Source: Botryllus schlosseri (lineage: Eukaryota). Taken from it: 64,000 nucleotides of DNA. The stretch is from contig CM119372.1 in NCBI GenBank assembly GCA_051294905.1, forward strand, positions 24,554,001-24,618,000, read 5' to 3'. The notes under the pieces were generated by a model, which was not told the origin of the DNA, searched no databases, and saw nothing but the letters and a program-made list of their open reading frames with translations. The position numbers and the translations under genes were made by a program. The first letter of the stretch is position 1, and the number at the start of each line of letters is the position of its first letter. This document shows positions 10,105 through 56,600 of this stretch, in pieces.

Positions 10105-10842
10105 CATTATATATATATATATAGGTCCAGCTCTGTCTGCGTTCAGACTTAGAGCACCATCACCGAGGTGATGGAAGTATCCATCAAAAAAGAGAGCATC
10201 AAAGATTTAAGTTATAAATTAAATTTCCCTTGAAAGTGCTGCTTTTGAGAATGTCCTGATGTCGGTGTCGTTCCGATTGAGGACATTGCTCATCAGCGTT
10301 GCGGAGGGTCTTCCTTTTTTCGTTCTCCTTTCATCTTCAAACGTTATTGACTTCACGACACTGTCATTAGGTTTTCGAATTATGTGTGCAAGAAATTTAG
10401 CTTGTTGGTGATCAATGAATACTGAAAGGTCTTCAGTGCGACAGATTCTATGAAGATTCTGATTGCTAATTTTGAATGCGTGATCGGTTCCCCTTCGAGT
10501 GTAGCCTCCGTGTACCATTTTTCGCAAAAATTGTCTGTAGCAAACTTCCAGGACGCTTCTTTGATTTTCCGAAAGAGACCAGCATACACTGCAGCCATAT
10601 GTGAGTCGACTTCGCACAAAGGCATTCAAAAATTTTATTCTTGTACCAATCCAAATTCTGAAGTTTCGAAGCAGGTATTTATAGGTTTGGAAAGCTGCAT
10701 GAGCCGAGCTGACCCTATTATTGATTTCGGATATCCCCACATTCGTTTCGTTATAGTGAATCATGCAACCAAGGTATTTGAAAGTTTTCACGTTTTCAAT
10801 ATCATGATTATGTAGAGAGCAGATTGAAGTCGGGTAAGTCAT
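10105..10842 (-). mobile_element. 5'-truncated non-LTR retrotransposon (RTE-like), C-terminal RT region plus 3' end
   Basis: ORF 10219-10842 has IENVKTFKYLG, EINNRVSSAHAAF, FVRSRLTYGC.W and KKGRPS motifs typical of the post-RT region of RTE-clade LINEs. Followed by a short 3' UTR and a (TA)n tail. Confidence 0.75.
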
Positions 10843-10956
10843 TACGATCGTTTAACGTCGCGATTATATTACTTTGAATACCTTTCACATCCGTGGTCCC
10901 GTTGCTGATTTCAATGATTCTATTTATTGAAGGTCTGCTCTCTGCTGGCTGTCTAG

Positions 10957-11571: not shown

Positions 11572-11706
11572 CTGTCTAGTGATGTTTTATTGCTTCACTT
11601 TTCGTAGCGTGTGTAGCGTTGATTTCCTAGCTTGATATCGTTGTTGAGTTATTGGTGGGGTACGGCGGATATACCAAAGAATACCGCCACCGTCTAGAGT
11701 TGTTAT

Positions 11707-12624: not shown

Positions 12625-14959
12625 TGTTAGAGCTAGAGTTCACCTGCCCTCATGCTCTGCTGTGAGCGATATCAGTAATACATTTAGTCGAATAATTGAT
12701 TTCAATCAACTGCTATATGTGATGTGGGTTAAATTTACCTCATCTAGATACTAGCTATTATGACATGACATTTCTTACACGGTGCCCTGTATCAAGGATG
12801 ACAGTGTGACAGAAATTAAGTTGTGCACTTTAACGTTGCATTCGTCTATGCATTAGTTTTGGCAACTGCCAGCACTTATCACCAGTAGTTGCTTGATTGC
12901 TTCGGTGCGTGTTTGACGAGACGTTATGCAGACTGTGGAATTGTAATTGTTCACCTTTCGTTTGTACGAAGTTTTTCATGTACGAAGTTTTTCATATTCC
13001 TCCTGTTTAGGCAAGATTAAAAGTGTGTGAGAAATAAAAGAATATATTTTAAATATGAAGTGCTGTCTCTTTTTGGATATGGAATGGATATATAAATTAA
13101 ATTCAAATCATTCTGTGCTGAAATGAATTTCAAGATCAATGATGACTCTTTTTTCAAGTGTAGGCTACACATGCTTAGGCTGATGGCCTTTTGTCGTGGA
13201 TTATCGGTTCCTCCTGTAGATGAACTATGTCACTGATCCATTTCATTTTGTATATGGATTTGTCAAGGTCACTGTTAAATTGGTGCAAAGTCCACCTGAT
13301 TTTTAGCAGCTGATGTTACATGCTCCTGAATATCTTCATTTTCTAATTACAGTAGTGCAATCTGTCTCTTCTTGACCTGATTCAATTTCTATTGTTATGA
13401 AGGGATCTGGTAATGCATAAATTGAGCTCCTAACATTTATAACAATTGAAGTTCTGTCGGTAAGAATCGAATAAATAGGCTATGCTTGCTACCTTGTTTA
13501 TGCTGTTGTGGGTTGTTTCGACATCGGTGTATAACTACAGAGGTTGGTTCAAATGCTAAGATTGAAGTAGGCTACCCTTTCCCACTTATTATGTACAGTG
13601 AGCAATGACTGGTGTTATTGAGTAAAAGTTTCTCAAATATATTTATGATGCATCGTTAACTCGCAACACTGACATTGCTCTATAATAATTTGTATTGATG
13701 TGTGCTCAGTTCGATTAGTCTCTTCAAACTCAATTATTGTATTTTAACATTTTAATTGTCTTCACTTTTTATATGAAGCTGCGTATTTTTAACATGTTAG
13801 CATTAAGAGCATTTCGTGGGCTTGGCAATATCATTGGATGTAGAAGTTTACCTTCAAGACAACTTCACTGTTCATCATGTCAGGTATGATTCGGAACTAA
13901 TATTGTTTCAAGTGTTCGTTTGATGTCGTGTGAATGTTGCATGGTAAAAAAGGTTTGACAATCATATTAATTTTTTAGAGAGTCGAAAATTGTTTCTGTA
14001 TTTTGTACAAGTTGCAAGTCATCATACACATAACTGCTTTCTTCCAAGATCTCACATAACATAACATTAAAACACATTTAATAAGGTAATGTGGGTATAT
14101 CAACTCAGTGACAGTTCATTTCAGTGACACAATAAAAAGTGCATTTCAATCGAATGAGGGAAAATCATTTCAATGACATTCAGAACAGTGTATTTTTGAG
14201 TGATATACCGGTATTCAAAAATGCTGTTTTAAATTAATCAATGTGTACTTTATTTTCTTCAAATTCATGAATGAATTTTGTCCGTAATATTGTTAGTTGC
14301 ACGTAAATTACTATCAATTCTCAGCCCATGTGATCGAGTTTAGTGGTGCTGGTGCTGACCTGAGGCTGGGTTTTGATGCGGCAGCCGATGATGGGAATTT
14401 GACTTGCAGATTGTGAGACAAGTGGACCTGCTGTCACTACTGAGTTAGGATGACCGACCATAGTAGATGAATAATAAGATGCGCGAGATCACATGGTGAA
14501 TCAATCTGCGCTATTTTGTATTTAGAAAACGCTCATCTTTGAAAGAGATTACGAATTACCAGATGGTCCTCTTTACGCAGCCAAATTGGAGAAGAAGAAT
14601 CATATCTATAGGGTGGTATCAATTGAAACGGGACCAACGGAGCTGGAAATAATTCTCACAAAAGATTCTTTGGGTTTGTTCTTGCACTTCTTGTATTAAT
14701 CATTCTATATGTAGCTGCGCTGTACACAGCTCTGTTATTTGTTCCTAGAATATTAATATATAGGCTATAATGATGTTCCGTGGCCCAAAAACTCGCATTA
14801 AAAGTTGTGTTTTCACTTACAGTGAAATAAGGCTTATCGTGTTTTTAGTTATTTCTAAACACTACTACCGTAATGGCTTGCAAGTCATTTACAACCTATT
14901 AACAACGAAGAAAATACATTAGCAATTCCTTCGTTTCACTGGAAGGAAATAGTCTACTG

Positions 14960-15943
14960 CAGTGGTTCCCAACCGGGGGGAATTCCCCCCTTGGGGGGAA
15001 TTTTGAACTTTTTAGGGGGGAATCTGGCTTTGGCGTTGTATCGGAATATACTCTGGATTCACATTGTGTGGTGAGATAGCGTAGTGCTATAATCCACAGC
15101 TGCAACACCAATAGGTTGTGGGTTCGAGTCCGACCGAGGTCGACTCCAGAATTCCTGCATAAGTGTTTGGGGTTTATCTAGGCTCCTCCTTGCCATCTCA
15201 TCTGTGTAAGCGGTGTCTCATGAAAGCCTAGAATAGGGCCGTGCTACAAGTCGGCAGGTACGGTAAAAAAATTAATGAAATTGGAATGGTGTAAATGCCC
15301 ATAGTAGTCAACGCACACCATGAACACCTCAAAACAAACATACTGGGTTCACAAGGTTTTTAGATTTTTATGGCAGAACTCTCAAATAGAAATTAGTTCT
15401 TTACAATTGTATGTTTCTTTAGTGGATTTTAAGCTGGGTGTATACTTAAATGCCTTCCGTGGATATTACACCCCCTGGTAAAGTGAGGCACGCGAGACGA
15501 TTTCGTTGGGCCCGCGACAGCCTCTCTACCAAATTTCTACTATAAGCAGGAAAAAGTCCAGCCGAATTCAGCACAAGGCCACTACCTTTTCAAGCCAACA
15601 TATGAGCTAACGTGAAAAACATCAAATTCATCGACACGACTCAAGGCCATAGCAAGCGGACTTGGTGATTTGTTTTTCGTCCGCGGCCACCCGATCGGTA
15701 AAAATGCACAAGTCAAATTTGGCTGTACTTTACCAAAGTGTAGTGCGGTCCGCATTCGACATAGTTCGGACATATCTGAATATGTTTGGCCAGTAATTGC
15801 TCAGTCAACAAATGGTTGAGCGCTAAAAAGCGCCTTTCTTTAGTCCCAGGCAACTTTTTCATAGGGGACGGGGGGGGGGGGGGGAATATTAGCTCAAATA
15901 TAGGCCAAGTGGGCCACAAGACGAAAAAGGTTGGGAACCACTG
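14960..15943. mobile_element. hAT-type non-autonomous element containing a SINE-B insertion
   Basis: TIR CAGTGGTTCCCAACC/GGTTGGGAACCACTG; perfect TSD GTCTACTG. Confidence 0.85.
15069..15340 (+). mobile_element. tRNA-derived SINE, family B
   Basis: Box B GGTTCGAGTCC and A-rich tail; colinear with 49040-49313. A reverse copy at ~23340-23568 continues at ~24247-24285. Confidence 0.8.
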
Positions 15944-21400: not shown

Positions 21401-22530
21401 TTTTTGCTAATTCCGATGTTTGTGAATAAAGGTGATTCTAGAATAGAGCCCCTATGATCCGCTAACCAATGCAATATGTAATATGCTTGATAAAACAGAA
21501 GTATTCAAACACAAATCTAGGGTATGGATTTTGAGGAAACATTTTGGAATCATTTGACTGGTCCGGCCAGCGAGCTAATCAAAATTTTTGAATCCAGCGC
21601 GCAACCCAAGTTGGTATTGACACCCTGGCAAAACAGAGCGATCACGAGCAACTGTAGAAAACTGAATGCAGGTGTTGTCCGATCTCAGAAACGCAAGATG
21701 TTATCTGATCCTAGTCCTAGTCTCGCATGGTATCAGTAGAATGTGAATTGAAGATAGAGTTGTCAGTTGTCACGTGTCGTCATCCTGCAATCTTCGCATT
21801 CGACTTGAAACATTTTGTCGAATGACTTGTGGAGAAACTTAGCAAATTTCCAAAAATTACAAATAATTGCACCATCTATTTTGCTTTAAAACTGCTTCGA
21901 TGGTTATGAATTTAGGCCTATATGAATTTGTAGCCTACGGCTAATTATGCAGTCATTGCCCTGGGCCTACATCGACTCACTAAACAGGTCAGCAACTTAG
22001 ATTTCGCTTACAATCAATGTCGGGCAGTATATGATGAACGCTAGACGTCTTGGTATTCTTATTCCCAACTGCCAAAAGGTGCATAGCGCATCATCAAAAG
22101 TGATAGATATTGATCCTGCCGTGCTGTCTAGTCGAAAAATATTACAACATTAAGATCATTAGAAAAATAGAACAGGCAGGCATAGTCGTGGCAACGGCAC
22201 TGAAAAGGATAGATATAGTCTGCTAGCAGAGCAGCTGACCGTTTCCTGGCCCAACGCAAAACTTATGCGATATAAACCGAAAAAATTGCATTACTGAATA
22301 AGCTATCTTGACTACCTATAGTATAAAGCAGGGGTCGAGAACTATTAAAGTCAAAGAGCCATATTGGACCAAATTTCAATTGTAATCTCCGGATAGCCTT
22401 TCGAGTTCAATCGATCTGCTACGTCAAAATTGAATATTCGTGACATCATGGTGACACGAAATCGAAATTCACTCATAGGATTCGTCGAGTGCGCCATATT
22501 TTCTGCAGTCGAAACTGCTGCGATGTTTAA

Positions 22531-23294
22531 AGGGGCACTGCACTCAAAAAATGATGTGGTCTCAAATTGAAGAGCAGAACGAAAAAAAAAATTTGGCCGC
22601 AGCCGTTTTCTTCAGAACGCCACCGTAATGGAGCTGCAATTTATGGAAATTTCCAGAGTTGCAGCAGTCGCGGCTCCGGATAATCTCTTAACCCGTTACA
22701 TGGCACGATGACTTCATCGTCGCACTTGCTCGACGCGATTACGCAGAGGACGAACTTTAGATAGTTGTCAGTCGATGTTATGAATGACTCATGTCTTGCA
22801 CACCAAGGCGGCGCTCAACGTACGGTGTTAGGTCAGGAGGATTTGTGTCTGGAGCTTGTCACGACTCTATAGTATTTGCCAGTTGAATGATACTGAGATG
22901 CCGTTACAGTTGTATATTGATGCAGATACAGCTGTCATTTTCAAGATGTATTATTGACTGCACAGTGCACAACCTTTGGAGTAGTGGTCTTGCGGAAGAT
23001 ACAGACACATGATATTTGTTAGACATATTTGCTTCAGAACATCGGCTGACAACTATCTGAAGCTCGTCCTCTGCGTGACTGCGTAATCGCGTCGAGCAAG
23101 TGCGACGATGAAGTCATCGTGCCATGTAACGGGTTAAGAGACTATCCGGAGCCGCGACTGCTGCAACTCTGGAAATTTCAATAAATTGCAGCTCCATTAC
23201 GGTGGCGTTCTGAAGAAAACGGCTGCGGCCAAAATTTTTTTTTCGTTCTGCTCTTCAATTTGAGACCACATCATTTTTTGAGTGCAGTGCCCCT
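22531..23294. mobile_element. TTAA-targeting MITE with ~225-bp near-perfect TIRs (Kolobok-like AGG ends)
   Basis: TTAA|AGGGGCACTGCACTC...GAGTGCAGTGCCCCT|TTAA. A related left end starts at 32762. Superfamily assignment rests on TSD and termini only. Confidence 0.8.
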
Positions 23295-23625
23295 TTAAGC
23301 ACTATAAATCATGCCGATGGCCCGGCATTTGAGCATTGTTGTTTGTGATATTTGTGGTATTTGTCGACTATACTATGCTCATTTACACCTGGCCAATTTT
23401 ATTCCGTAGCTGTCGACTTGTAGAGCGACCCTCTTCTAGGATTTTTATAAGACACCGCTTACACGCATGATATGGCGAGGAGGAGCCCATTAATATAACA
23501 CTTAGGTAGTGACTTTGGAGTCCACATCGGTTCGAACTCGAACCCGCAACCCATTGGCGTTGCAGCTAGCGTTGCATTTAAAACAAAAATCAATTTGAAC
23601 AAGTGATTTGTGGTACAGAACTTCA

Positions 23626-23846
23626 GAATAACGCGAAACAATAACTTCATATTGTTAATTTATTCGCTAAAAGCTTTTCGACTAACTCTCATCAGTAGCG
23701 AACGTTAGTGATGGGGTGAATCAAATTCGAAATGTTACATTTCGAATTTGATTCACCCCATCACTAACGTTCGCTACTGATGAGAGTTAGTCGAAAAGCT
23801 TTTAGCGAATAAATTAACAATATGAAGTTATTGTTTCGCGTTATTC
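23626..23846. repeat. Perfect 221-bp palindrome derived from a Penelope-like terminal repeat
   Basis: 110-bp arms around a single T at 23736. Preceded by GTACAGAACTTCA, shared with Penelope ends at 29155 and 61809. Flanked by the 16-bp duplication CAAAAATCAATTTGAA. Confidence 0.9.
23770..23809 (+). ncRNA. Minimal type I hammerhead ribozyme (mirror copy on - strand at 23663-23702)
   Basis: TTCGCTA-CTGATGA-GAGTTAGTC-GAAA-AGCT-TT-TAGCGAA: 7-bp stem I, canonical core, palindromic helix III loop. Confidence 0.75.
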
Positions 23847-29154: not shown

Positions 29155-30899
29155 GTACAGAACTTCATGACACATTTGAATAAAATATTCATTTTATTCC
29201 CGAAGCTTTTCGGCTGACCCTCGTCAGGGGAGTATCGTCAGCAATAATGCGAGAATTCGAATAACTATGTTCAGCAACAATATATATCGCTAATTATGAC
29301 GTAACACATAAAATATACAAAGTTAGGAAAACGAGAGAACTGAAGCGTTGGCATGGAGAAAGCGAAGCAAAACAAGTTAATGCGCGATTTTCAAATGATA
29401 TACAAATTCTTTCTGTTGGCATAGACTAGGTTTGCTCATAGTGATGATGGTGGACTCAAGAACAGACAAATGAAATAAATTGCGACCCTTAGCCAATATA
29501 GAGAACATGTCCTCGTGATAGTTAGCAGCACACGTATGATTTTCTAGTAAATGTTTGCCTATAGAAGATTTTTGACCCATGGCCTGGTTATGTTCAAGAA
29601 CAAGCGGATTGTTAAGCTGCGAATTTGAGATATAAGATTTGACAGACGGTGGAATGTGGTCTTTGATACGGTCCTGCAACCGTTTGGAAGTTCTCCCTAC
29701 GTACCGACAATCGCAGTGGCACTTGAATTCATAAATTACGTTGCTTTGTTTTATAGCCGGGAGAACGTCCTTTCGGGTTGCAGGAAACATTGGTATCGTG
29801 GTAAAAACAACATTGGTTTTCACCGCTGGATAACAGCGGTAGACTGCTGAAGTTATCTGTTTCTCAAATCGATAAGAAACCGGGCCAATCCAAGGAAGAT
29901 GAATGTACACATCCCTATTTTCACGCGGAATTACTTCGGGGGTTTCTTCTGGTTTGGTATCATTCCAATGACTTAACTTTTTACTTATTGCCCGCTTAAT
30001 AACATACTCTGGGTATCCGTTGTCAATGAAAATTTTACGGATGTAGTCAAGTTCATTATTCAATTTGACCTCGGAAAAATCATCAACGCCCGGTGAACCA
30101 AGGTGCCGATTAAATTGATTTTACGACTTTTTGGGCTGAAAGAGCTCCATCGAAGGTAATGACCCGAAAATGTGGGCTTCCTATAAACGGAGGTAAGGAA
30201 TTTGCCATCCCGTTTCTCCACAAGAACGTCAAGGAATGCCAGGCGATTGTTAATTTCTTTTTCCGACGTGAATTGCAATGCTGGATGTAGTTTGTTTAAA
30301 TTTTCCAGGAAACTATCACAGTCAGATTCATCATCGAATATCACGAACGTGTCATTGACATAGCGATGGTATGATAAGGGCGGTTTAACACAAGAAGAGA
30401 AGAGCTTATCTTCATGAAATCCTACAAATATATTGGCTAGAATAGGACCCAATGGTGATCCCATTGCTACACCGTCAGATTGTCGGAACATGATATTATT
30501 GAAACTAAATTCAACAGAACACACAGCGCTTCTCATCAATTCAATGAAGGGAGCTCTCGAGAAAGGAGGGGGTATTAGCTTACCGTTATATAGAGCATCA
30601 GCGCAAATATTCAACGTCTCATTTAGTGGTACGTTGGTGAAAAGGCTCTTTATGTCGAATGAGCCTAGGAAATTATCGCGCGCGGATAGCTGTGAGCGAC
30701 GCATCTCATCAGCGAAGGTAAAAGAATCGCGTACGCAAAGCGACCCGTAAAGTTCGCGAACAGGTTACAGTATGTTGATCAACCACTTCGCCAACTTCTG
30801 TTGCATTGACCAAGTCATGCTGAGTATCGGTCTGAGTGGCACATCGTCTTTATGCGTCTTCGGTAATCCATACATACGCGGTCTTTGGGAGCCAACAAT
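29155..30899 (-). mobile_element. 5'-truncated, inactivated Penelope-like retroelement (RT + GIY-YIG endonuclease + terminal repeat)
   Basis: RT motifs MYGLPKTHK, LRPILS, SFDIKSLFTNVP, GVAMGSPLGPILANIF and RYVNDTF (YVDD mutated). Frameshift at ~30060. GIY-YIG region NVIYEFKCHCDCRYVGRT. Confidence 0.95.
29199..29230 (-). ncRNA. Minimal type I hammerhead ribozyme
   Basis: Minus strand: CCC-CTGACGA-GGGTCAGCC-GAAA-AGCT-TC-GGG, in the Penelope 3' terminal region. Confidence 0.75.
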
Positions 30900-41597: not shown

Positions 41598-44500
41598 AAC
41601 TAGTGAGATGGTAAGCAGGACTGAAACAGCACTTCGTAAACCCCCATTAAATAAACGTTGGTCTTCGGCCTCCCATAGCGTGATAAACGCCCCCAGACCC
41701 CCCCCCCCCCCGCCAGGATATACGTTTTTTACCAATACTTATCAAAGCCATTTGTTGTAGTGTTTCGTTAGCCAGCTTCTATCGCCCAGACGCGCGAAGC
41801 ACAAATTGTTTTTATAATTCATAATTTAATCGGTCAATATGATCGGAAATTGCATTTATATTGCTATCCATTTTTATATCCTCTTTCTGCTCACGTAATC
41901 AGATTTATCGGTAGAGCTGAGTGAGGTTTCTTGGAAAATGTAGGGCGCGTAAAAAATAAATAAACATATTCGGTGGACCGGTTGGTATAGTGATTTCGTA
42001 ACAAAATGTTATTTCGTGACGTCCTGTCTGTTTTGTCAAACGATATTGAAATCGCCCAAACGTATTCAACTAAGAGACGCACACTATTTCAAATTGGTAT
42101 TTCTTCACTGGAAAATAAATTTTCTCTGCGGGATGGTATTTGCCTTATAGGGTTCAGCTTCAAACTACTAAGAATGGAACATTCGTCGCCATGCAGCCCT
42201 TCATTCGCCAATGGACAATTGAACATATATTTATAAATATCGAAGTTTTCGGTCAGCATAAAGGCAGTCTTTTTCGGTCACGTTTTTCACGCTGCCGATC
42301 CTTCTGGCACATTTCTCGGAGTCACATGTTACATGGCCTAAAACTTCATATGTCTTGGTACGTCGTTCCGTGGTAATGGCCGACGCCGGAATGCCCATTT
42401 CTATAAGTCATGCGTAGTTTTTCTTGCGGTATAATACCAATAATCAAGATATTTGGCAATATCAAATCGCACGTAGAGCAAAAAAATTTTGCAAAAGCTG
42501 CATAAATTTTCAAAAAATACTCTGTCATTTATGTTAATTCACGAAATTATTTTGGGACCTCTTCGCACATTATCGGAAATGACATTTCCGACAAGTCGTT
42601 ATCGACCCACAGCATTGTCACAAGTCCAATGAAGTAGGTGTTGTCGAAAAATATCAAATAATCTTTATATGGCGTGCAGAACTGACATTAATTTATTTGT
42701 GGTCGCATAAAAGGAAAATATTAGATTATTATAACTTTCCAAATCACCCATACTCTTATGATGTCATCAAGAGTGATACTCGAATATCCGAAGCCTAATA
42801 CTAAATTCCGAATTCGATTTAACCAATAGCGATGGTCATCGCGGTCGAAAAGCTAGATCAGGGATCGGGAAGCCATGTATGGCTCTTTTGGTGATATGGT
42901 ATGACTCCCAGATAAGTTTTCAATTTCGCACTTAACTCTAGCCTTATTCATAAATATTGCTGCAACTTTTCGCATGTTTCAATAGCGGCCAGAATCCTTG
43001 TTTTGTGCTGGCGGAGAGAAGTCTATATATGGGAGGTAAACAGAGTGGTGTATCCAGATGGTTTTAGGAGCTCGGAACCAGTTTTAAACAGTTTTTTATT
43101 GCCTTTAAAAATTGTGCTTTAATTATGCCGTAATGGCCGTAAATACTTTCGAAAAAAACATGTAGTATGAGCCTACCGAAGATTTGCACCCAATATAGTC
43201 GACGTATACAGTGGCTGGAACCGTCGAATTGGTCGTCGGTTCAACAGTTATAGCGTGTTGAAATCGATCACTGGCACGGAATGAGTCGGTTCAACAGTTA
43301 AAGCATGTTGAAATTGATCACTGGCACAGAATGAGTTCTCTGATGATTATGAAGATGATGACTGCCGCATGCTGCATAATGATGTAGTCGTCGTTAAAGA
43401 TATATTCAGAGGTCGGGAACCTTTTTTGTCCGAAGAGTCATTTTAGTCCTATTTTTCCCATTTTAACTCCCGAAGAGCAATACATGTCAATCAAGTGTTA
43501 CGTCACAATCGAAAATTCGGTGACGTCAGGGTAGCTCGAATTCGAACTCACTATACACGAGTAGTATAGTAGATTGGTCGTGACGCGCCATTGTGGCTTA
43601 TGGGCGGGGTGGTGACTCGCCTGAAAACCGGGGGTGGTGACTCGCCTTTTTAGACCCCCCTCTAGGCGGTGAGTCGCCATGTGTTCTTATGGGTGCGGTC
43701 GTGATTCGCCCTTTCAGGTATAGCTCGTGGCGGTGATTCGTCGTGAAAACTCGTGGTCGTGACTCGCCTTTTTTGCTATAGGCGGTGGCATTGATTCGCC
43801 TGTCATGTATTCTTAAGGGATCTCTGATGAAGTGCCATTGTTTCTTACGGGATCTTTGGTGACTCGCCGTGTGTTCTTATGGGTGCGGTCGTGAATCGCC
43901 CTTTCGGTTATAGGCATCTCTCGCACGGTGTGGAATATGTATCAGGTATGGTAAATAGTCACGTGATTGGTCCTTAGTTAATATGTCTATCCCAAATTAT
44001 TATATATGACCGATTCGAGTTGATCCCAACGTTTACGGTGAGAGCAACAATGATATATCGTTATTCTTATGGACGCGGCGGTGATTCGTACTTTCGGGTA
44101 TAGGCTGCGGGTGGAATGTCGTACTTTCAGCAAAAAGGTGTGAAATAGTTTGGTGAATCTAGGAATCATGAGCAAGGTAATATTTGGTAGTTAGTTTACC
44201 AGAGAGCCGGCGTAGACGGCGATTCCAATACCAACAATAACCGCGTTCACAAACTTACACTTCAAATAGGTGTGAAATAGTTTGCAAAACCCCAGCGAGC
44301 GCTGACAAGATAATGTCTCGGACAAAACAATCTTTCGCGGCTTCGTGTTACAGGCATATCGATCGCTCACGCGGTGAAATTTTCGTAAGCAGTTTGTCAC
44401 AGAACTTGATTTCACTCGTAAAGATTTAATAAGTAACGAATAACAGACCGCCAGTGTCGGTAACTTGAATAGCGACAAATTGTCACTTATTTCTACTCTA

Positions 44501-46960
44501 ACCCTAATCCTTTGTGAAGTGTACGCTTATTCAAAAAGGTGCGAAATAATTCTAAAATCCTACGATCGCTCACAAGATAACACCCATAAGACATAACCAT
44601 CTCTCGTGACTTGTGGTTACATACATCGCAATCGCTACAACGTAATATGTTGGTAGTTGGGTGCAGAACTGGATTTCACGAGTCTGATATAATAAGAATA
44701 TTACCTATTAAGTAATAAGCACCGAATAACAGAACCGTCGCAGACGGTGACTTGAATATCCAAGATTTGATACTTTTCGCGATCGCTATATGTTTCACGT
44801 TGACTTTGGTTGCGCGATGCGAATCATGAGAATATTCAATCAATGTGTCAATTTGTCAACTTGAAATGAAACTCACTACACAAACCAAGCTGATTCGTAT
44901 TTGAATGAGTTGATCCGGTACAACTCTAATCCTTTGAGAAATCCATTTACCGCGATCAGTTGATTCGAACGTAACTTGAATATTGCTGACTCCAACTTCA
45001 GTCGCATCGAATTATTCACACATTCCACGCTGCTGTTTCACACCTATAGAATCAATACCATCTAACTAAACAAGAATCAAGAATCACAAGTATGCACATA
45101 CAATAATTGTATTTATTACTGAGAAATCAAACGCTTAACAAAAACACGCAACTTATCATTTACCAACTCAAGCATTACCAAAAAAAAAAAAAAAATTCAG
45201 GTATTGTTGATTGAAAATCCTTGAGTCCTTATTATCAAAAATGTTATAGTGCGGCGTCGGAATCCATTCGTGGGATGTACTAAAGTTAAATTCAGACAAT
45301 CCAAAATGAAATGTCTCGACTTTAACATAGTCTGAATTGAAATAGATTGACAAACATGACTACCATCTTTTCAAGTACCATTTCGATATTATACGCAAAT
45401 TGATTTGAAACAAGTAATGAAACATTACAACTCTATTCACGATCTGGCTTTCCGTTTGTCAAAGAGAAATTTTAACATCTTACCATACTCAAAAGAATTA
45501 TTCATAACATTAACCGGTGTTAAAAATATAGTTTTCACTTACTTGATTATAACACTACAACTCGCAAACTTGAATTAATTCGTCCTGGTTGTATTCATAT
45601 GACCGATCATTTTTATTCAACGGTAAAGGTCGTTACTATTCTGTAAGACAAAGTATTTACTAATCGGTGCATATACGCGATTTGACATAAACCAATTATA
45701 TTTTGAGTATACGAGATTTGAATTTCTGAACAATAACTGAGAATTAAATTATCACAATTGAATCCATATATGACGGCGTGAAAGATATTGGAATGTCAGC
45801 AACTCTTTACGGTCATAGTTACAACCACATTAACTAATTTACCCAGCCAACACGTCATGATCATTCCTGAAATCAACACAAACGCGACCACTGACTTGAG
45901 TTAACCACAAAACGGCATCAAGTTTTTAATCAGCTTGCAGCTGACAGATTATTCGAATGCATCGATGGGGAATATTATTGAACTCGTCGATATTGTTACT
46001 TCAACAAATTATCGCTTACGTCGACTGCGAATGTTAATATCGAATGGTAAGACTTGATCGCATATTTGTTGAACACAGACATGACAAAGAACATTACCGA
46101 TATTTTATAATCTAGTCATATTACTTTTCACATCTATCAATATCAGAATACAAGTCATCAAACTTATTGTTAAATGTAACATAGCACCTTTGGAATCGGA
46201 TTCGTTATAGTCATACAAATTGTATTAAACCCAACACCAAAACAAAAGGACTTTCAAGCTCATTGAAATCAAATCTTTCGTCTTCGACTTGCGCTTTATT
46301 AGATTGCACGCAACAATTCGTTACGAATGAGCTGTAACCAAAGTTAAGAAATCTTTGTGCCCACAGATATGGAAGATGAATATAGCTAACACAATCACGA
46401 ATCGACGTTTCAGAGTATTTCACGGATGTAATAAACTTGTTGGTATCGCCTATCTAAAATTATGCATGCGTTCGATTTCCATACCGACTGTTGCGATGTT
46501 TAGGATTCGCTTACAATGACCAAGAGTGAGGATTTAACATCAATGTCGTTACTGTCGGTATTCACAACAGAGAATCGAAACATTACACAGTGTGAAAATA
46601 TATCTTTGATATCAAAGCACCATCCCAAGTACACGATTAATACTCAACTCCGTTCGCACTTTCCATAGAACGTGCTAAATGTAAAATATCGCGAGGAGAC
46701 TTCGATCATTACAAAAGTAAATTGGGGTATGTTTGCTAGACGCATCCAATTCAGTTAGAAATTTCTGGTGCACAACAATCGTAATATCAAGGAAGTACTT
46801 GCTACACTGTAATTCACTAAACGCGTTTTGCGTTGTTGGTCGTTTGTAGTATTGATTGAAATTGTTTTTCAACCCTCAAATAATAATTCCCGACATGAGA
46901 CCAAGCCGCTGAAAGTCATTACCATCATAAAGAAACAATTTGTACGATGTTTGCCAAATG

Positions 46961-48815
46961 CAGGGTTGTAACCAAGTCACATGGTTCCGAGTCACGAGTC
47001 AATCATACTTTTGTGGTTTTGACTCGAGTCGAGTCGAGTCATTTTCAATTCATCACAGACTCGAGTCCGAGTCCAAGTCACCGTTTAAAGGGTCAAGTCC
47101 GAGTCATGGTGTTATGACTCGAGTCGAGTTCAAGTCACAGTATTGAAGTCATGTTCAACTCATGTTTTCAATCCTGCTTTGGTGATATCGAATTCCCAGT
47201 TTGCGAAACATGCTCATTTTGTCCCTATCAAGAGTCTTGACACGTGTTTATTTAGGCAGATAACGGACAGGTCCTGGCCTCATTTACCGATGCTAAAGAT
47301 AACTTTACTAATCTTAGAACTTAAAATCAAATATCTCTCTTGTCAGTCTGATACATCACCAATACAAGCATTCAGTTTTTATATGAACACATCGACGATA
47401 GCTCACGAATAGCTGATAGAGAACCAACGAATTCACGTCTACATACTATCTGATAGAGAACCAACAAATTCACGTCAAGATACTAGTTGATAGAGAATCA
47501 ATAGATGCATGTTAATGTAGAGGTATTTACAACAGGCCAGCATGCTGTAAAAGCGTGCATACAACTATGTGCAGTGTGCAGTGACAACAGAACAGATACC
47601 TTTTGATTATACTAAAGGTTTTCCCAATTGCATTACCGACTATATCGCAGTTACAGCATTGGAGAAATAATTGTACAATGGGGCTGTTCAAAAACATTTT
47701 TTCAAATTTTCTGGCTACTTCTTAAAATTGCTAGATTGCCTAAAAATCAAATTTGGCTCAATTCCAACCAGTAGAAAGCAATGCTATGAAAGAAAATTTT
47801 AGACTAATTACAAATAGAGATTTTCGAATTTTACCGGCTATCTCATGATATTGTTACATTGTGTAAAAATATGATTCATAGCAAATTTGACTCAATTCCA
47901 ACTAGAAAAAGTGAACCAACCAACCAGTAAAATAAAAAAGAAGTTATTTTAGAACAGCCATATTGTACAAACATCACACAACATTAGCCAATCATTATTA
48001 CTCACGTGCACAATGCACATACCTAACAAAACGTCAAATGGACGAAGGGCATAGTTTGTTTTCACAGACAGCAGATCAAATCAATGAGTTACACCTCAAA
48101 AATACTAATGTGGAAAGGAGATCCTTAAATATGTTAAAGCGGCATGGCCGTAGAATGAATCCACATCTACTGAATACACGTTCCACTAGTGCACTAGATG
48201 CAGGAATTGACAAGCATTTTTGAACCACACTGAAGAGCATTGAATACTCATTCTTTCTAGTCGCACAAAAATGCAAAGAATCATCGCCTTCAAATCTACA
48301 CATGAGCTTATTAGTGTCTTCACCATCTGAGTCATTTCATTGGCTCTAATTGAACTTTGATTCAATTGTTTGCTTGTATAATTGAAAAGTCTTGAGTACT
48401 TTATTTGCGGAGGATTTATTACCTCTTCATCGCTGGACGATTTTGTACAATGCATTGCCACTATGTATCATTTTCTGTTGTTTTTACGGCGGCATATCTG
48501 ATGTATCAGACAAGTGCAACGAAAGCAGTGGTGACAAATAGCGATGTCGGCAGAATTCGTCGGATGCGTTGATCTAGCCATTACGATTCGCAAATTTCTT
48601 CATCTTCAAGTCATATAAAATAAGTCGAGTCAATGACTTGGGTCCAGTCACGCGTAATGACTCGAGTACAAGTCGAGTCAATCCAAATATTGACTCGAGT
48701 CGAGTCGAGTCATTTTCTCATTTCAATAAAATGACTCGAGTCAAGTCGAGTCATAAAAAAATCGTGACTCGAGTCTGACTCGAGTCGAGTCATGACTCGA
48801 GTCATTACAACCCTG
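46961..48815 (-). mobile_element. hAT deletion derivative with C-terminal dimerisation-domain remnant, inserted in the left arm only
   Basis: TIR CAGGGTTGTAA/TTACAACCCTG; perfect TSD GCCAAATG; empty site in the right arm (~52811). ORF 48076-48303 reads LSIPASSALVERVFS...LVFLRCN. Confidence 0.93.
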
Positions 48816-49039
48816 GCCAAATGTGTCCTATAGTTAGGTGTACTAGAATTATTTGTGTAACCCACCGACAATGCAATCAAAAATTTTTCCGTTGTCATTC
48901 ACTAAAGTAAATGTCATCACAATACTCTGTCAAAAAGACGTTACTTGTATGTGATTGAACCCCTAGCGATTAACTCACTAAACCGAACTCCAAAGAAATT
49001 TTACTCACTCGACGGATATGAAACAACGTCGCTTAATCG

Positions 49040-49313
49040 TGGCGAGATAGCGCAGTGGTGTAATCCGCGGCTACGACACCAATGGGTGCGGGTTCGAGTC
49101 CGACCGAGGTCGACTTCTGAATCCCGATACCTAAGTGTTGGAGGTTTACCTAGGCTCCTCCTCGCCACCTCATCCGCGTCAGCGGTGTCTTACAAAAAGC
49201 CTAGAGGTGGGCCGTGCTATAAGTCGGCAGTTACGGAAAATAAGAAGAATATCGGCCTGGTGTAAATGACAATAGTAGTCGACAAACACCATGAATACCA
49301 AAAACAAACAAAA
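49040..49313 (+). mobile_element. tRNA-derived SINE, family B, inserted in the left arm only
   Basis: Perfect 15-bp TSD AACGTCGCTTAATCG; empty site in the right arm (~52593-52607); box A/B and A-rich tail. Confidence 0.93.
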
Positions 49314-50404
49314 AACGTCGCTTAATCGGTCTATATCGTTTTGCAAATCATATCCACCCAATAGAAAACAATTTTCACTAGCTTGGTAATGAAACCGAAG
49401 AGTGGGTCTTCATTCAATATTTTGTTTGTGTCAAATACTTTGCAATGAACACATTTGAGTGATTGAGCTTTACATCATCAGGCTGTCATGTAAATCACGG
49501 TTACATCATTCTTGTAACTGTATCGTTTAACTACCGGGTTGCATCAGTTTGATATTTTTGTCATTTAGTGATTGTTGAACATACCACTTCGAAATACTCC
49601 ATTGATCTTAATTCTCTTTGTCGTGATAACCGAAGTACATTTTTTTCGAATTCGTAACAAACGACTATCACATGACGAATTTTTGAAAAGTTTTACTTAG
49701 AAGGTTGGTTGAATATCGCGAAAAATAATATACCACTCATATTGATACTGATTCTCGCCGAACTCGATTGTGATCAATGTATGCTTTATGCGTTCGGATT
49801 CATTTCGGTATGGTTGAACATTCAACCTCGATAGATACGAATTGACACCCACCCAGCTAATGTCATACCAAGTAGTTATTTACAACAACCAAGACACAGA
49901 AATTTGTTTTGTCCGTTTCGATTTTTTTACTAGAGGTACTCAACACTTCGGTTAATACGATCTAAATTTAAACTCCGTCTATAGTTTTGCTGGATAAGAA
50001 TTATGTTAGTGTAAATAACTTTCACTCTCTTGGATTATGGACTCAATGTGTTAGCGCACATTCAATATTTTGTTGTATCAACTAGTTACTTTGTAGAATA
50101 CGAATGATCATCCCTACAACTCTTACAAAAGTACGAAGTATATTTGGATCACACAAAGTAATCAACTTTACTCGATATCCTCACACTACGAAACTAAATG
50201 TTTGGTTACACTCTACAAACTGTTTCTGATGTCACAGGAACTTTTTTTACATGAATGGTCACGCATCTAAATATTCAAATAATCCAACACACCTTACAGA
50301 AATATCATAGTTCTTGTAACAAAGTTGTATAAGTATAATGTTTATCGTGAGTCCTACACGTTCATGATATATGTCGAGTTTGACTTTGACTTGACGCCAG
50401 ATCT

Positions 50405-50695
50405 CCAAAGGAAAATGTTATTTTTACTCAGGTAAACGACGGACCACCAAGTAAAAATGGTTTGTTGCTCAGGGTAAAAATATATATTTTCAAGTGAAAA
50501 AGGTTTGTTACTCTGGGAAAAAATATATTTCCAAGTGAAAATGATTTGTTGCTCGGGGGAAAAATATATTTCCAAGTAAAAATGTATTGTCATTCTGGGT
50601 AAACGACAGATCTCCAAAGGAAAATGATATGTTTACTCAGGTAAACGACGGACTGCCAAGTGAAAGTGGTAATTTTACATAGGTAAACGTCGTGG
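50405..50695. repeat. Degenerate ~40-43-bp tandem repeat, about 7 units
   Basis: Units begin CCAA(G/A)(T/G)(G/A)AAAATG and contain GGTAAACGAC or GGGAAAAATATATTT. Confidence 0.85.
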
Positions 50696-53600
50696 GTTCA
50701 GTGTCGTTGGTCTTGTTAAACGTAGCTATCGAGTTGTACAATATACTTGTCGTGAGTATGCAATTACGAAGGGGGAGAATGAAATTGTTATTATGAGTGC
50801 CAGAAGGTTGTTGTATGTAGATTTGACAGTAACCCTATCATTCGTATATGACAAACACAATCATGATCGTGAATACATTAACTAACTTGTTCGGTCCCGA
50901 TCCATGCGATAGACTTCTATCTCCTTACGTTCAGTCGTGTCGTGTCCATTTCAATACGGGCCCCCACATGTATGACATGCACACACTAACGCCGTAAACA
51001 GAAGTCGATGATTTTGAATCATAAAAATATTTCTTGATTACATCGGAATGTCTATGTTGCAGAAAGTAAATACTTTTATGGTTTTTGTGTGTTTAATGAA
51101 AGCAATTGGTTACAAGTATGTTTTGGGAAAATAAAATTCATTTTTCTGTATGTTGCAGTTTGTGAGGAAATGAAAATAGATTCGTGGTTTTAATTGAATT
51201 GCGCTGTTTTAATGTACGCTTCAACATGGAGACTTGACGCTGAACAACAACTCGATTCACTAAACAATTTGTCACTGGCGTGCAAAGGGTTAGGAAAATT
51301 TTAATACAGCTCCATCCACTGGTTGTTTTGTTGTGAGGATAATCATGTGATGACTCAGCACTTTTCGGTAGCAAAGTAGATTGTTTTGTGCGTTAGATTT
51401 GTGGAACATGAGTCGGATACACACTCTTTTGCGGAAGTAACAAGATTACTGCGATGACATTGGTAGGTCTCTCAAGCAGTGACCATGGATTTGTTTTTGA
51501 AAGATGTCGCGATATCGATATAATATTTTCTAAAAGTCAAACTCGACATATATCATGAAGGTGTAGGACTCACGATAAACATTATATTTATACAACTTTG
51601 TTACAAGAACTATGATATTTCTGTAAGGTGTGTTGGATTATTTGAATATTTAGATGCGTGACCATTCATGTAAAAAAAGTTCCTGTGACATCAGAAACAG
51701 TTTGTAGAGTGTAACCAAACATTTAGTTTCGTAGTGTGAGGATATCGAGTAAAGTTGATTACTTTGTGTGATCCAAATATACTTCGTACTTTTGTAAGAG
51801 TTGTAGGGATGATCATTCGTATTCTACAAAGTAACTAGTTGATACAACAAAATATTGAATGTGCGCTAACACATTGAGTCCATAATCCAAGAGAGTGAAA
51901 GTTATTTACACTAACATAATTCTTATCCAGCAAAACTATAGACGGAGTTTAAATTTAGATCGTATTAACCGAAGTGTTGAGTACCTCTAGTAAAAAAATC
52001 GAAACGGACAAAACAAATTTCTGTGTCTTGGTTGTTGTAAATAACTACTTGGTATGACATTAGCTGGGTGGGTGTCAATTCGTATCTATCGAGGTTGAAT
52101 GTTTAACCATACCGAAATGAATCCGAACGCATAAAGCATACATTGATCACAATCGAGTTCGGCGAGAATCAGTATCAATATGAGTGGTATATTATTTTTC
52201 GCGATATGCAACCAACCTTCTAAGTAAAACTTTTCAAAAATTCGTCATGTGATAGTCGGTTGTTACGAATTCGAAAAAAAATGTACTTCGGTTATCTCGA
52301 CAAAGAGAATTAAGATCAATGGAGCATTTCGAAGTGGTATGTTCAACAATCACTAAATGACAAAAATATCAAACTGATGCAACCCGGTAGTTAAACGATA
52401 CAGTTACAAGAATGATGTAACCGTGATTTACATGACAGCCTGATGATGTAAAGCTCAATCACTCAAATGTGTTCATTGCAAAGTATTTGACACAAACAAA
52501 ATATTGAATGAAGACCCACTCTTCGGTTTCATTACCAAGCTAGTGAAAATTGTTTTCTATTGGGTGGATATGATTTGCAAAACGATATAGACCGATTAAG
52601 CGACGTTGTTTCACATCCGTCGAGTGAGTAAAATTTGTTTGCAGTTCGGTGTAGTGAGTTAATCGCTAGGGGTTCAATCACATACAAGTAACGTCTTTTA
52701 GTGACAGAGTATTGTGATGACATTTACTTAAGTGAATGACAACGGAAAAATTTTTGATTGCATTGTCGGTGGGTTACACAAATAATTCTAGTACACCTAA
52801 CTATAGGACACATTTGGCAAACATCGTACAAATTGTTTCTTTGTGATGGTAATGACTTTCAGCGGCTTGGTCTCATGTCGGGAATTATTATTTGAGGGTT
52901 GAAAAACAATTTCAATCAATACTACAAACGACCAACAACGCAAAACGCGTTTAGTGAATTACAGTGTAGCAAGTACTTCCTTGATATTACGATTGTTGTG
53001 CACCAGAAATTTCTAACTGAATTGGATGCGTCTAGCAAACATACCCCAATTTACTTTTGTAATGATCGAAGTCTCCTCGCGATATTTTACATTTAGCACG
53101 TTCTATGGAAAGTGCGAACGGAGTTGAGTATTAATCGTGTACTTGGGATGGTGCTTTGATATCAAAGATATATTTTCACACTGTGTAATGTTTCGATTCT
53201 CTGTTGTGAATACCGACAGTAACGACATTGATGTTAAATCCTCACTCTTGGTCATTGTAAGCGAATCCTAAACATCGCAACAGTCGGTATGGAAATCGAA
53301 CGCATGCATAATTTTAGATAGGCGATACCAACAAGTTTATTACATCCGTGAAATACTCTGAAACGTCGATTCGTGATTGTGTTAGCTATATTCATCTTCC
53401 ATATCTGTGGGCACAAAGATTTCTTAACTTTGGTTACAGCTCATTCGTAACGAATTGTTGCGTGCAATCTAATACAGCGCAAGTCGAAGACGAAAGATTT
53501 GATTTCAATGAGCTTGAAAGTCCTTTTGTTTTGGTGTTGGGTTTAATACAATTTGTATGACTATAACGAATCCGATTCCAAAGGTGCTATGTTACATTTA

Positions 53601-56600
53601 ACAATAAGTTTGATGACTTGTATTCTGATATTGATAGATGTGAAAAGTAATATGACTAGATTATAAAATATCGGTAATGTTCTTTGTCATGTCTGTGTTC
53701 AACAAATATGCGATCAAGTCTTACCATTCGATATTAACATTCGCAGTCGACGTAAGCGATAATTTGTTGAAGTAACAATATCGACGAGTTCAATAATATT
53801 CCCCATCGATGCATTCGAATAATCTGTCAGCTGCAAGCTGATTAAAAACTTGATGCCGTTTTGTGGTTAACTCAAGTCAGTGGTCGCGTTTGTGTTGATT
53901 TCAGGAATGATCATGACGTGTTGGCTGGGTAAATTAGTTAATGTGGTTGTAACTATGACCGTAAAGAGTTGCTGACATTCCAATATCTTTCACGCCGTCA
54001 TATATGGATTCAATTGTGATAATTTAATTCTCAGTTATTGTTCAGAAATTCAAATCTCGTATACTCAAAATATAATTGGTTTATGTCAAATCGCGTATAT
54101 GCACCGATTAGTAAATACTTTGTCTTACAGAATAGTAACGACCTTTACCGTTGAATAAAAATGATCGGTCATATGAATACAACCAGGACGAATTAATTCA
54201 AGTTTGCGAGTTGTAGTGTTATAATCAAGTAAGTGAAAACTATATTTTTAACACCGGTTAATGTTATGAATAATTCTTTTGAGTATGGTAAGATGTTAAA
54301 ATTTCTCTTTGACAAACGGAAAGCCAGATCGTGAATAGAGTTGTAATGTTTCATTACTTGTTTCAAATCAATTTGCGTATAATATCGAAATGGTACTTGA
54401 AAAGATGGTAGTCATGTTTGTCAATCTATTTCAATTCAGACTATGTTAAAGTCGAGACATTTCATTTTGGATTGTCTGAATTTAACTTTAGTACATCCCA
54501 CGAATGGATTCCGACGCCGCACTATAACATTTTTGATAATAAGGACTCAAGGATTTTCAATCAACAATACCTGAATTTTTTTTTTTTTTGGTAATGCTTG
54601 AGTTGGTAAATGATAAGTTGCGTGTTTTTGTTAAGCGTTTGATTTCTCAGTAATAAATACAATTATTGTATGTGCATACTTGTGATTCTTGATTCTTGTT
54701 TAGTTAGATGGTATTGATTCTATAGGTGTGAAACAGCAGCGTGGAATGTGTGAATAATTCGATGCGACTGAAGTTGGAGTCAGCAATATTCAAGTTACGT
54801 TCGAATCAACTGATCGCGGTAAATGGATTTCTCAAAGGATTAGAGTTGTACCGGATCAACTCATTCAAATACGAATCAGCTTGGTTTGTGTAGTGAGTTT
54901 CATTTCAAGTTGACAAATTGACACATTGATTGAATATTCTCATGATTCGCATCGCGCAACCAAAGTCAACGTGAAACATATAGCGATCGCGAAAAGTATC
55001 AAATCTTGGATATTCAAGTCACCGTCTGCGACGGTTCTGTTATTCGGTGCTTATTACTTAATAGGTAATATTCTTATTATATCAGACTCGTGAAATCCAG
55101 TTCTGCACCCAACTACCAACATATTACGTTGTAGCGATTGCGATGTATGTAACCACAAGTCACGAGAGATGGTTATGTCTTATGGGTGTTATCTTGTGAG
55201 CGATCGTAGGATTTTAGAATTATTTCGCACCTTTTTGAATAAGCGTACACTTCACAAAGGATTAGGGTTAGAGTAGAAATAAGTGACAATTTGTCGCTAT
55301 TCAAGTTACCGACACTGGCGGTCTGTTATTCGTTACTTATTAAATCTTTACGAGTGAAATCAAGTTCTGTGACAAACTGCTTACGAAAATTTCACCGCGT
55401 GAGCGATCGATATGCCTGTAACACGAAGCCGCGAAAGATGGTTGTGTCCGAGACATTATCTTGTCAGCGCTCGCTGGGGTTTTGCAAACTATTTCACACC
55501 TATTTGAAGTGTAAGTTTGTGAACGCGGTTATTGTTGGTATTGGAATCGCCGTCTACGCCGGCTCTCTGGTAAACTAATTACCAAATAATACCTTGCTAG
55601 TGATTCCTAGATTCACCAAACAATTTCACACCTTTTTGCTGAAAGTACGACATTCCGCCCGCAGCCTATACCCGAAAGTCCAAACACCGCCGCGTCCATA
55701 AGAATAACGATATATCATTGTTGCACTCACCGTAAACGTTGGGATCAACTCGAATCGGTCATATATAATAATTTGGGATATACATATTAACTAAGGACCA
55801 ATCACGTGACTATTTACCATACCTGATACATATTCCACACCGTGCGAGAGATGCCTATAACCGAAATGGCGATTCACGACCGCACCCATAAGAACACATG
55901 GCGAGTCACCAAAGATCCCGTAAGAAACAATGGCACTTCACCAGAGATCCCTTAAGAATACATGACAGGTGAATCACCGCCACCGCCTATAGCAAAAAAG
56001 GCGAGTCACTACCACGAGTTTTCACGGCGAATCACCGCCACGAGCTATACCTGAAAGGGCGAATCACGACCGCACCCATAAGAACACATGGCGACTCACC
56101 GCCAAGAGGGGGGTCTAAAAAGGCGAGTCACCACCCCCGGTTTTCAGGCGAGTCACCACCCCGCCCATAAGCCACAATGGCGCGTCACGACCGATCTACT
56201 ATACTACTTACATGTGATTCGTCGTGTGAGTCACATTTTCTCTCTAAAAACTCGTACTAATCATAATGGTTGCCTTATCGAAGCATGCGAAATTTTAGGT
56301 ACGAGAACGTAGGTTTGTCGAGATCCTCCTTCTAAATGCGAGAAAAACATGGTCACTACAGCAGTGTGTATGCCTAATTGCCTACCCACTCTAAGCTGTG
56401 ATACATCAGTGACGTCGGGTCAGCGGAGGCAGTATCTCACCTATCGTCAGGATGAGTGAACGAAAATTGTGAAACCTTCAATTATTATAGCTATTTTCAA
56501 TCGATGTTCATCGATGTTCCTCAATGACAAAATTTTGAACATTTTTTCTTGAAATCACACAATTTGCATAATAATTGTTCAGAAATATAGCGCGAAACGA

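Follow-up and report, generated by a model that had tools for sequence, protein, structure and literature searches.

Copy-back or snap-back defective interfering genomes are self-complementary and helper-dependent, with an origin derived from the helper, and consist wholly of helper sequence. Foldback transposons and MITEs are non-autonomous elements with long inverted arms and internal tandem arrays; they are moved by cut-and-paste transposases and are heterogeneous in length or short. For Polintons (Mavericks), excerpts of two sources give terminal inverted repeats (TIRs) of 46-1,447 bp or 100-1,500 bp (PMC8097293; 10.1101/2023.08.22.554363). One of these excerpts already takes the narrow spread of sizes among intact Mavericks as a possible capsid constraint (PMC8097293), and according to the other Polinton virions have not been observed to date (10.1101/2023.08.22.554363). 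Both the replication and the virions of Polintons are long-standing inferences.

The window, a stretch of 64,000 nucleotides of Botryllus schlosseri DNA, contains a 12.6-kb mirror-image insertion at 43560..56208 with Polinton-type ends, a 6-bp target-site duplication (TSD) and a split host repeat. With considerable confidence we regard this element as a centre-deleted copy of an abundant palindromic family of 13.3-14.3 kb, with Polinton ends and 6-bp TSDs, which is likely copied by the polymerase and inserted by the integrase of helper Polintons.

The insertion in the window

The first-pass annotation had described a 12.6-kb fold-back with Polinton-type ends, and self-BLAST confirmed its coordinates, arm lengths and termini. 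The features are as follows.

43448..43553, minus strand: left half of the host repeat, matching 5146-5245
43554..43559, plus strand: left 6-bp TSD (TACACG), differing from the right copy at one position
43560..50387, plus strand: left arm, truncated at its inner end, with 4,676 bp of element sequence and two inserts acquired later
43560..44110, plus strand: helper-like terminal repeat of about 550 bp, beginning AGTAGT and matching L028/L029 at 83% over 450 bp
46961..48815, minus strand: hAT-type transposon remnant, left arm only, with an 8-bp duplication and a Pfam match (PF05699) at 48076-48336, E 5e-7
49040..49313, plus strand: SINE-like insert, left arm only, with a 15-bp duplication and an A-rich tail
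50381..50394, no strand: junction of the central deletion (50387/50388), where a few bases repeat adjoining left-arm sequence; unique in the assembly
50388..51532, minus strand: apparent spacer, which is unpaired inner right arm (arm positions 4677-5821)
51533..56208, minus strand: paired part of the right arm, 4,676 bp
56209..56214, plus strand: right 6-bp TSD (TACATG)
56215..56298, minus strand: right half of the host repeat, matching 5052-5146

The inverted self-matches (43560-46960/56208-52811 at 99.2%, 48816-49039/52818-52593 and 49310-50387/52611-51533) give an arm pairing of 4,673 columns with 99.2% identity and 37 substitutions; the 1,145 bases between the arms are left unpaired. The flanks TACACG and TACATG are a single transition apart, and the host repeat represented at 5052-5245 continues on either side of the insertion across one TACATG-like hexamer, which upholds the earlier view of one insertion event with a 6-bp TSD. 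The earlier figures of 4,676 bp per arm and 1,145 bp of spacer were also right, but the "spacer" is arm sequence, and 50388-51532 occurs in both arms of other copies; a 41-bp tandem array lies inside it at 50394-50689. The arms gave no match to the host repeats of the window. The insert at 49040..49313, which we judge to be a SINE, has relatives within the window at 15068-15340 and 23339-23566.

As the annotation had stated, the arms hold no ATG-started ORF of at least 100 aa, and none of the ORFs inspected in the window element encodes pPolB, an integrase, an ATPase, a protease or a major or minor capsid protein. Divergence between the arms is uneven, with 2-3% in the first kb and about 0.1% at 1-3 kb (p=4e-8), and judged by this pattern part of the arm-to-arm conversion may occur after insertion as well. 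Since the differences between left and right are mostly private alleles, we rejected a hybrid origin of the copy from two subfamilies.

Long inverted repeats are prone to mis-assembly, and the spanning data here are contigs and not long reads through arm, centre and arm, so that an assembly artefact, or a one-off inverted duplication after insertion, has to be weighed. An artefact is very unlikely because the arms differ by two transposable-element inserts and 37 substitutions, and because one contig of run X1, possibly the source sample and therefore not independent support, reaches across the left junction, with 64 letters on one side and 46 on the other. A 64-letter contig of the same run spans the central junction, but one of its sides has only 28 letters, below the required 31. 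The same architecture recurs in hundreds of copies, each with its own TSDs, and the loop sequence of the family is present in runs carrying three organism labels, and we regard both forms of this explanation as extremely improbable. No empty site was found among the contig matches listed, two runs being without coverage of the flank.

The palindromic family and its helpers

Other copies and their TSD lengths had been proposed as a check, and a search with the element's ends gave 922 forward and 916 reverse matches genome-wide (1,838 in all; reversed control 1 + 0). Twenty-seven end-pairs of C1, sampled by position, comprised 19 large fold-backs, 5 short centre-deleted elements, 2 gene-carrying Polintons and 1 unresolved pair; fold-backs or centre-deleted remnants thus make up 24/27. 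An exact 6-bp TSD, read by eye, was present in 41/44 paired elements, including 2/3 helpers, with a central CG in 23 of the 41, and the terminal motif 5'-(AGT)2 of the window copy is carried by the family. The annotation had named three outcomes as counting against it (an assembly artefact; other copies with non-6-bp TSDs or linked to a different transposase superfamily; short TIRs in every other copy), and none of them came about.

Intact copies have arms of 6.2-6.8 kb, about 93% of the element. Within a copy the arms are typically 99.7% alike (median divergence 0.27%, 34 copies), while between copies identity is 79-96% over 35-92% of the arm. The arms are mosaics, evidently recombining, and captured segments stand in both arms of their carrier, as with a C2H2 zinc-finger module in L035/L036 and, in L047/L048, a helper-derived segment of 1.2 kb. 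No fold-back gave a tblastn match to pPolB or integrase and no Polinton core gene was found in the family, which has nevertheless made many independent insertions (hundreds of copies) without enzymes of its own. By extrapolation it accounts for some 2% of the assembly, as unstable palindromes. A literature search, with Repbase outside its scope, found no description of wholly palindromic non-autonomous Polintons; entries for non-autonomous Polintons exist in Repbase.

The window element is a centre-deleted member of this family, with about 3.5 kb lost from its centre. The six short copies of C1 are likewise all central deletions (6/6), and two short forms tested gave no second copy of either (40 candidates scored in one test); the junction of the window copy has a single match genome-wide (1/1). 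The loop gene went with the centre, and the left arm gained the hAT insert and the SINE; the copy is probably dead. What survives of the proposed mobile class is a non-autonomous, Polinton-ended palindromic family with 6-bp TSDs; its mobile unit is about 13.7 kb and not the form with 4.7-kb arms. The window copy is a degenerate member that illustrates the decay route of the palindromes and adds little else.

Gene-carrying Polintons with the family's ends, sought as partners, were found in the same genome in groups A and B, the ends of group D being different. They encode integrase with a chromodomain, ATPase, pPolB relatives with PF03175 and double-jelly-roll capsid look-alikes (0.98); a Pfam search named neither the capsid nor the protease-like ORF, which we take to be a protease on the basis of a motif, and a PDB sequence search with the helper polymerase as query gave no match. 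The 131 pPolB matches fall into four groups. In group-A Polintons the polymerase is under purifying selection although its canonical catalytic motifs are missing. Two group-B helpers start with the same 20 bases as the right end of the window copy, and the terminal repeat at 43560..44110 is the main portion held in common with gene-carrying Polintons. These are likely the helpers of the family, and from the shared ends, the TSD length and the central-CG target bias we infer mobilisation in trans.

The loop is 0.3-1 kb long in the family. Most intact copies have a 0.9-kb loop with one conserved ORF of 91-93 aa, present in at least 150 copies, so that the description as a gene-less derivative holds for the window copy, which lost the ORF, and not for the family. 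Its pN/pS is 0.39 with zero internal stops in 21 full-length copies, against 0.49-1.47 and 26-103 stops in the five other frames. Short-loop copies (4/17) are without the ORF and still spread, which makes it dispensable in cis. A search for its homologues gave a single near-identical entry, and Atlas matches were under 0.9; no Pfam family, no relative in viral_contigs and no counterpart in any of the 13 helper elements compared was found. The AlphaFold model has a pLDDT of 40. RNA over the loop region amounts to 41 reads among 22.2 million records, on both strands, which is thin support for the ORF, and none of the runs containing the loop is recorded as RNA.

In the reading of the annotation, the element was a gene-less snap-back derivative in which one end of a helper had been copied onto the opposite end, mobile as a unit of 4.7-kb arms and 1.1-kb spacer. 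The complementary arms, the helper-type ends and the absence of core genes agree with this, and the arm/loop borders, which differ between short- and long-loop forms, would fit repeated fold-back events. However, helper-matching sequence amounts to 481-1,023 bp per arm (13 gene-carrying Polintons compared, 26 loci), and the loop has nothing matching the helpers beyond a 38-bp flank piece. Because only 0.5-1 kb per arm comes from helpers, the arms, as far as sequence comparison goes, are more than a helper end copied back. With a central junction unique in the assembly, a spacer made of arm sequence and a selected ORF in the family, we find this origin very improbable.

Length of the family and a possible satellite virus

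The total length of 17 intact copies is 13.3-14.3 kb, with an SD of 279 bp against about 980 bp expected by permutation (p≈5e-5); these copies were selected for symmetric arms, and centre-deleted ones (e.g. 3.6 and 12.2 kb) were excluded. Reducing the set to 10-11 cluster representatives leaves the result standing (p≤0.001). When two copies are paired, each has about 2.2 kb per arm that the other lacks, yet the RMS difference in arm length is 286 vs 797 bp. Gains and losses of several hundred bp sit in different intervals and offset each other, and since gains cancel losses at near-constant total length, this points to size selection, plausibly through packaging. Equal-length module swaps by recombination among related copies could account for some of the compensation. 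The copies, at about 13.7 kb, have some 85% of the length of the 15-17-kb helper and are 2-3 kb shorter than group-B helpers.

In the mechanism that we propose, helper pPolB would initiate at the AGT-repeat ends and displace a strand, which would fold onto itself as a snap-back hairpin along about 93% of its length. Repair synthesis on the stem would recopy one arm from the other, keeping the arms identical within a lineage and placing captured modules in both, and the duplex would be inserted by the helper integrase. Length would be under stabilising selection, most likely via packaging into the helper capsid, and after insertion the palindrome would be unstable and often lose its centre. Initiation, hairpin repair, insertion and packaging are steps that we infer; no trans-mobilisation, free DNA form or particle has been observed.

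The same helper-dependent palindromic family might never be packaged and spread only within the nucleus, its constant length coming from common ancestry together with exchange of similar-sized modules, or from a limit on replication or integration. We give this close to an even chance. Polinton particles are not known, according to an excerpt of one source (10.1101/2023.08.22.554363), the arms are recombining mosaics, and satellite and helper lengths are unequal (13.7 vs 14.8-17.3 kb). The cancelling of gains and losses in different intervals is harder to explain in this way, and ordinary non-autonomous elements shrink, but neither of the two short forms tested had a second copy.

It is tempting to speculate, as a possibility that we put somewhat short of even, that the family represents a Polinton's satellite virus, occurring naturally and integrated in the germline, that is, a capsid-sized DNA hairpin which keeps only the helper's origin, is brought up to the size for packaging by mirrored foreign DNA and has a single selected gene without a known family, with the group-A Polintons as a second tier of parasite on the same helper. 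If so, the length compensation of the satellite would be population-genetic evidence for the existence of Polinton virions. This coding-poor passenger outnumbers its helper several-fold, and it keeps both its length and the identity of its two 6.5-kb arms while kilobases of content are exchanged; it offers a read-out, in a natural system, of the requirements of the helper machinery: origin, hairpin repair and size.

Comparison with known systems

Foldback transposons and MITEs have other ends and TSD lengths, whereas the ends of the family match Polintons and its length is kept at 13.3-14.3 kb. With copy-back defective interfering genomes the family shares self-complementary arms and a helper-type origin, but those genomes are wholly helper sequence and most of the family's arm is foreign.

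The adenovirus 12 element SYREC reportedly consists of a long foreign-DNA palindrome flanked by viral termini, is near genome length and is encapsidated. Like the family, it needs a full helper and contains non-viral DNA, and by a title cited in an excerpt of the source it is symmetric (PMC2396429). SYREC is a product of cell culture without an integrase route, whereas the family forms a lineage that occurs in nature and is integrated in the germline, where it has hundreds of copies and a selected gene of its own. A length constrained near that of the helper, as in an encapsidated satellite, is also seen in the family.

With Polintons, as excerpts of two sources describe them, the family has in common the AGT-repeat termini, the 6-bp TSD and a size within the range of 12.7-24.6 kb (PMC8097293; 10.1101/2023.08.22.554363). 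Polintons have short TIRs around a unique coding body with pPolB, integrase, ATPase, protease and capsid genes; the family has arms of 6.2-6.8 kb (4.7 kb paired in the window copy), none of these genes and one unrelated small ORF. Extended TIRs (about 2 kb) are also found in butterfly polintons, and polB-less, helper-dependent polintons likewise stay mobile, according to an excerpt of the source (10.1101/2025.02.07.637071). These polintons are there described as retaining core genes, with hexon and adenain inside the TIRs (10.1101/2025.02.07.637071), whereas the family is without any of them and almost wholly palindromic.

Structure and decay of the window copy

Self-BLAST of the window recovered the annotated inverted repeat as three blocks spanning 43560-56208, and reading of the flanks bore out the AGT-repeat termini, the nearly matching 6-bp flanks (TACACG/TACATG) and the split host repeat, in which the counterpart of the repeat at 5052-5245 is divided across one TACATG-like hexamer. 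The arms form 4,673 paired columns with 37 substitutions (0.79%), 1,145 bases remain unpaired in the centre, and the left arm alone carries a hAT-type insert of 1.86 kb (8-bp duplication, PF05699) and a SINE-like insert of 274 bp (15-bp duplication). No ATG-started ORF of 100 aa was found within the arms, in line with the first-pass annotation; its description of a gene-less element holds for these arms and fails for the intact relatives, most of which carry a conserved loop ORF.

The unpaired centre had been read as a spacer, but it aligns with both arms of other family copies and represents right-arm positions 4677-5821, including a 41-bp tandem array that lies about 700 bp ahead of the loop in intact copies. 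Because the supposed spacer is inner right-arm sequence, the parent would have been about 14 kb long, and about 3.5 kb (inner left arm, loop and innermost right arm) appears to have been deleted asymmetrically since. The central junction occurs once in the assembly with two mismatches allowed, and it includes a few bases that repeat the adjoining arm. The left junction is bridged by a contig of sequencing run X1, and the central junction is crossed by another X1 contig whose short side has only 28 letters. Short copies on assembly sequence C1 show six more central deletions, and no second copy of one such short form was present among 40 scored candidates. In animal cells, long palindromes tend to lose their centre. 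The window copy is a real, decayed member of a new non-autonomous Polinton form.

Other features in the window:
23626-23846: 221-bp palindrome (99.5%), zero spacer
22524-23301: MITE-like element, 269-bp arms at 94%
11698-12624 (+): intronless 308-aa frame, which from its motifs we take to resemble a mitochondrial carrier protein
29377-30764 (-) and 10219-10851 (-): reverse-transcriptase-like remnants, presumably Penelope-like and LINE-like

Family size, target sites and helpers

The terminal-sequence search proposed in the annotation was productive, since the terminal 401 bp retrieved many paired ends spaced 13-23 kb, and exact matches to the terminal pattern in the 495-Mb assembly numbered 922 forward and 916 reverse against 1 for a control. 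Among the first 100 ends listed on C1 there were 35 adjacent pairs within 60 kb, 15 of them at 13.0-14.3 kb. Of these 35 pairs, 27 were sampled by position, another 4 were already in the set of fetched elements, and the remaining 4 span 27-34 kb and lie outside the sample. The 27 comprised 19 large fold-backs, 5 short centre-deleted fold-backs, 2 gene-carrying Polintons and 1 unassignable pair. Extrapolated roughly, the genome would contain 600-800 fold-back copies, about 2% of the assembly. The loop was present in runs carrying three organism labels.

The 6-bp target site duplication (TSD) was exact in 41 of 44 paired elements, had one mismatch in one and failed in two. Counted by eye, 23 of the 41 exact duplications have a central CG, two of three helpers among them, and the centre is CG or another pyrimidine-purine step in 35 of 41; this bias is a clear integrase target preference. 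Polinton ends often lie inside other members or tens of bases away (fetched loci L045:232-407 and 14324-14338, L049, L059, L109), which suggests insertion beside existing ends. One 22.8-kb copy (L023-L025; G000:C11:14931869-14954714) contains its loop twice, in identical form, together with four arm segments that agree at 99.9%; either its central 9.3 kb was duplicated in tandem or it is a partial concatemer.

The gene-carrying helper at C15:3416563-3431379 has 549-bp TIRs, an integrase with chromodomain and an ATPase. Its polymerase matches pPolB relatives, of which P0004 bears PF03175, and its 432-aa ORF is like double-jelly-roll capsid clusters at 0.98 (PF21738 on 14-30% of cluster members). 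Polymerase matches number 131, in four identity groups. The group B polymerase is canonical (motif A in 6/6 loci fetched; L099 has A, B and C), and the group B elements, 15.0-17.3 kb long where both ends were located (6/7), share the satellite's ends, while the ends of group D differ from them. Only 481-1,023 bp per satellite arm matches any helper locus, which tells against the earlier proposal that one end region was copied back onto the other.

Group A is a whole Polinton subfamily of about 30 copies (L121-L145, L028/L029, L103/L104), with elements of 14.8 and 15.4 kb. Its polymerase lacks canonical catalytic motifs in every copy displayed, motifs A and C being non-canonical, and retains a long frame that evolves under purifying selection, with pN/pS 0.30 (19 copies); its capsid and integrase share about 96-98% identity with those of group B. 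Group A is likely a second helper-dependent tier, in which the polymerase may be kept for a non-catalytic role.

Arm identity, length compensation and the loop gene

Arm divergence within copies has a median of 0.27% (34 copies), whereas arms from different copies align at 79-96% identity across 35-92% of their length. Two captured modules, one with a zinc-finger ORF and the other a helper segment of 1.2 kb, are mirrored in both arms of their carriers. Since arms are alike within copies and dissimilar between them, with modules in both, recopying of one arm from the other must accompany the spread of lineages. The multi-C2H2 zinc-finger ORF (L035:7375-7884 and L036:1119-1922), in both arms of one fold-back subfamily, was probably captured; the helper segment (L047:860-2084, mirrored in L048) contains a 211-aa ORF with a weak OB-fold hint (E 0.1). 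Divergence along the arms is uneven in many copies (p=4e-8 in the window copy), which speaks against purely pre-insertion recopying. In the window copy the differences concentrate in the terminal 770 bp (43560-44330) and the next 2 kb (44330-46296) has zero substitutions, a contrast possibly due to gene conversion after insertion.

Length was analysed in 17 symmetric-arm copies (16 single full-size units and the first unit of a nested copy), a set that leaves out centre-deleted copies and most with large inserts and in which kinship is only partly controlled. Total length is 13.3-14.3 kb, and segments between shared anchors show length differences of as much as 1.1 kb per arm. The SD of total length is 279 bp, against about 980 bp with segments permuted (p≈5e-5), and the compensation persists when only the arms are counted, when the inner arm is merged with the loop, and when the set is reduced to 10-11 cluster representatives (p≤0.001). 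Over 136 pairs, which are not independent, arm lengths differ by an RMS of 286 bp, where 797 bp would be expected. Reordering of modules was ruled out as the source of constant length, since about 2.2 kb of each arm (median) is without homologue anywhere in the partner copy.

Loops are homologous among intact copies, and a constant start position and length set the loop ORF apart from other recurring ORF clusters (one in each of 23 elements, mostly 91-93 aa; at least 150 near-full-length copies). It is under selection, with pN/pS 0.39, variable sites 44/34/63 by codon position and zero stops in 21 full-length copies, against pN/pS 0.49-1.47 and 26-103 stops in the other five frames. It matched no known family, its predicted structure was unusable, and no match occurred in the helpers compared. 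Four of the 17 copies have short loops (about 340-390 bp) without the ORF, so the gene is dispensable in cis; its product would be a putative trans-acting small protein, perhaps favouring the satellite over its helper. In one RNA run the loop region gave a weak signal, 41 reads among 22.2 million records, on both strands and with peak depth within the ORF.

Proposed mechanism and comparison with known systems

The palindromic architecture, the copy number, the TSDs, the ends in common with helpers, the likeness of the arms, the selection on the loop ORF and the compensation in length are results of the sequence analysis. From established protein-primed replication we infer that helper pPolB would start synthesis at the AGT repeats, that the displaced strand would fold back on itself (snap-back), that repair synthesis on the stem would copy one arm as the mirror of the other, and that the duplex product would be inserted by the helper integrase; size selection would then be imposed, most plausibly by the capsid. 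The family is very probably a helper-dependent palindromic satellite. That packaging sets the length limit is a tentative proposal, which we place at or slightly under an even chance.

Published Maverick/Polinton TIRs are given as 46-1,447 bp and sizes of 16.9±1.7 kb are taken as a constraint (PMC8097293), or TIRs as 100-1,500 bp with virions unobserved (10.1101/2023.08.22.554363); 10.1101/2025.02.07.637071 describes 2-kb TIRs bearing genes and mobile polB-less forms. SYREC requires a helper, according to PMC2396429, and PMC3014272 and PMC6431247 served as further comparison. No report of palindromic Polinton satellites was found in the openly accessible literature searched. The fold-back element falls outside the autonomous Polintons and outside copy-back genomes in the strict sense; by analogy, it appears to behave like a helper-dependent symmetric satellite.
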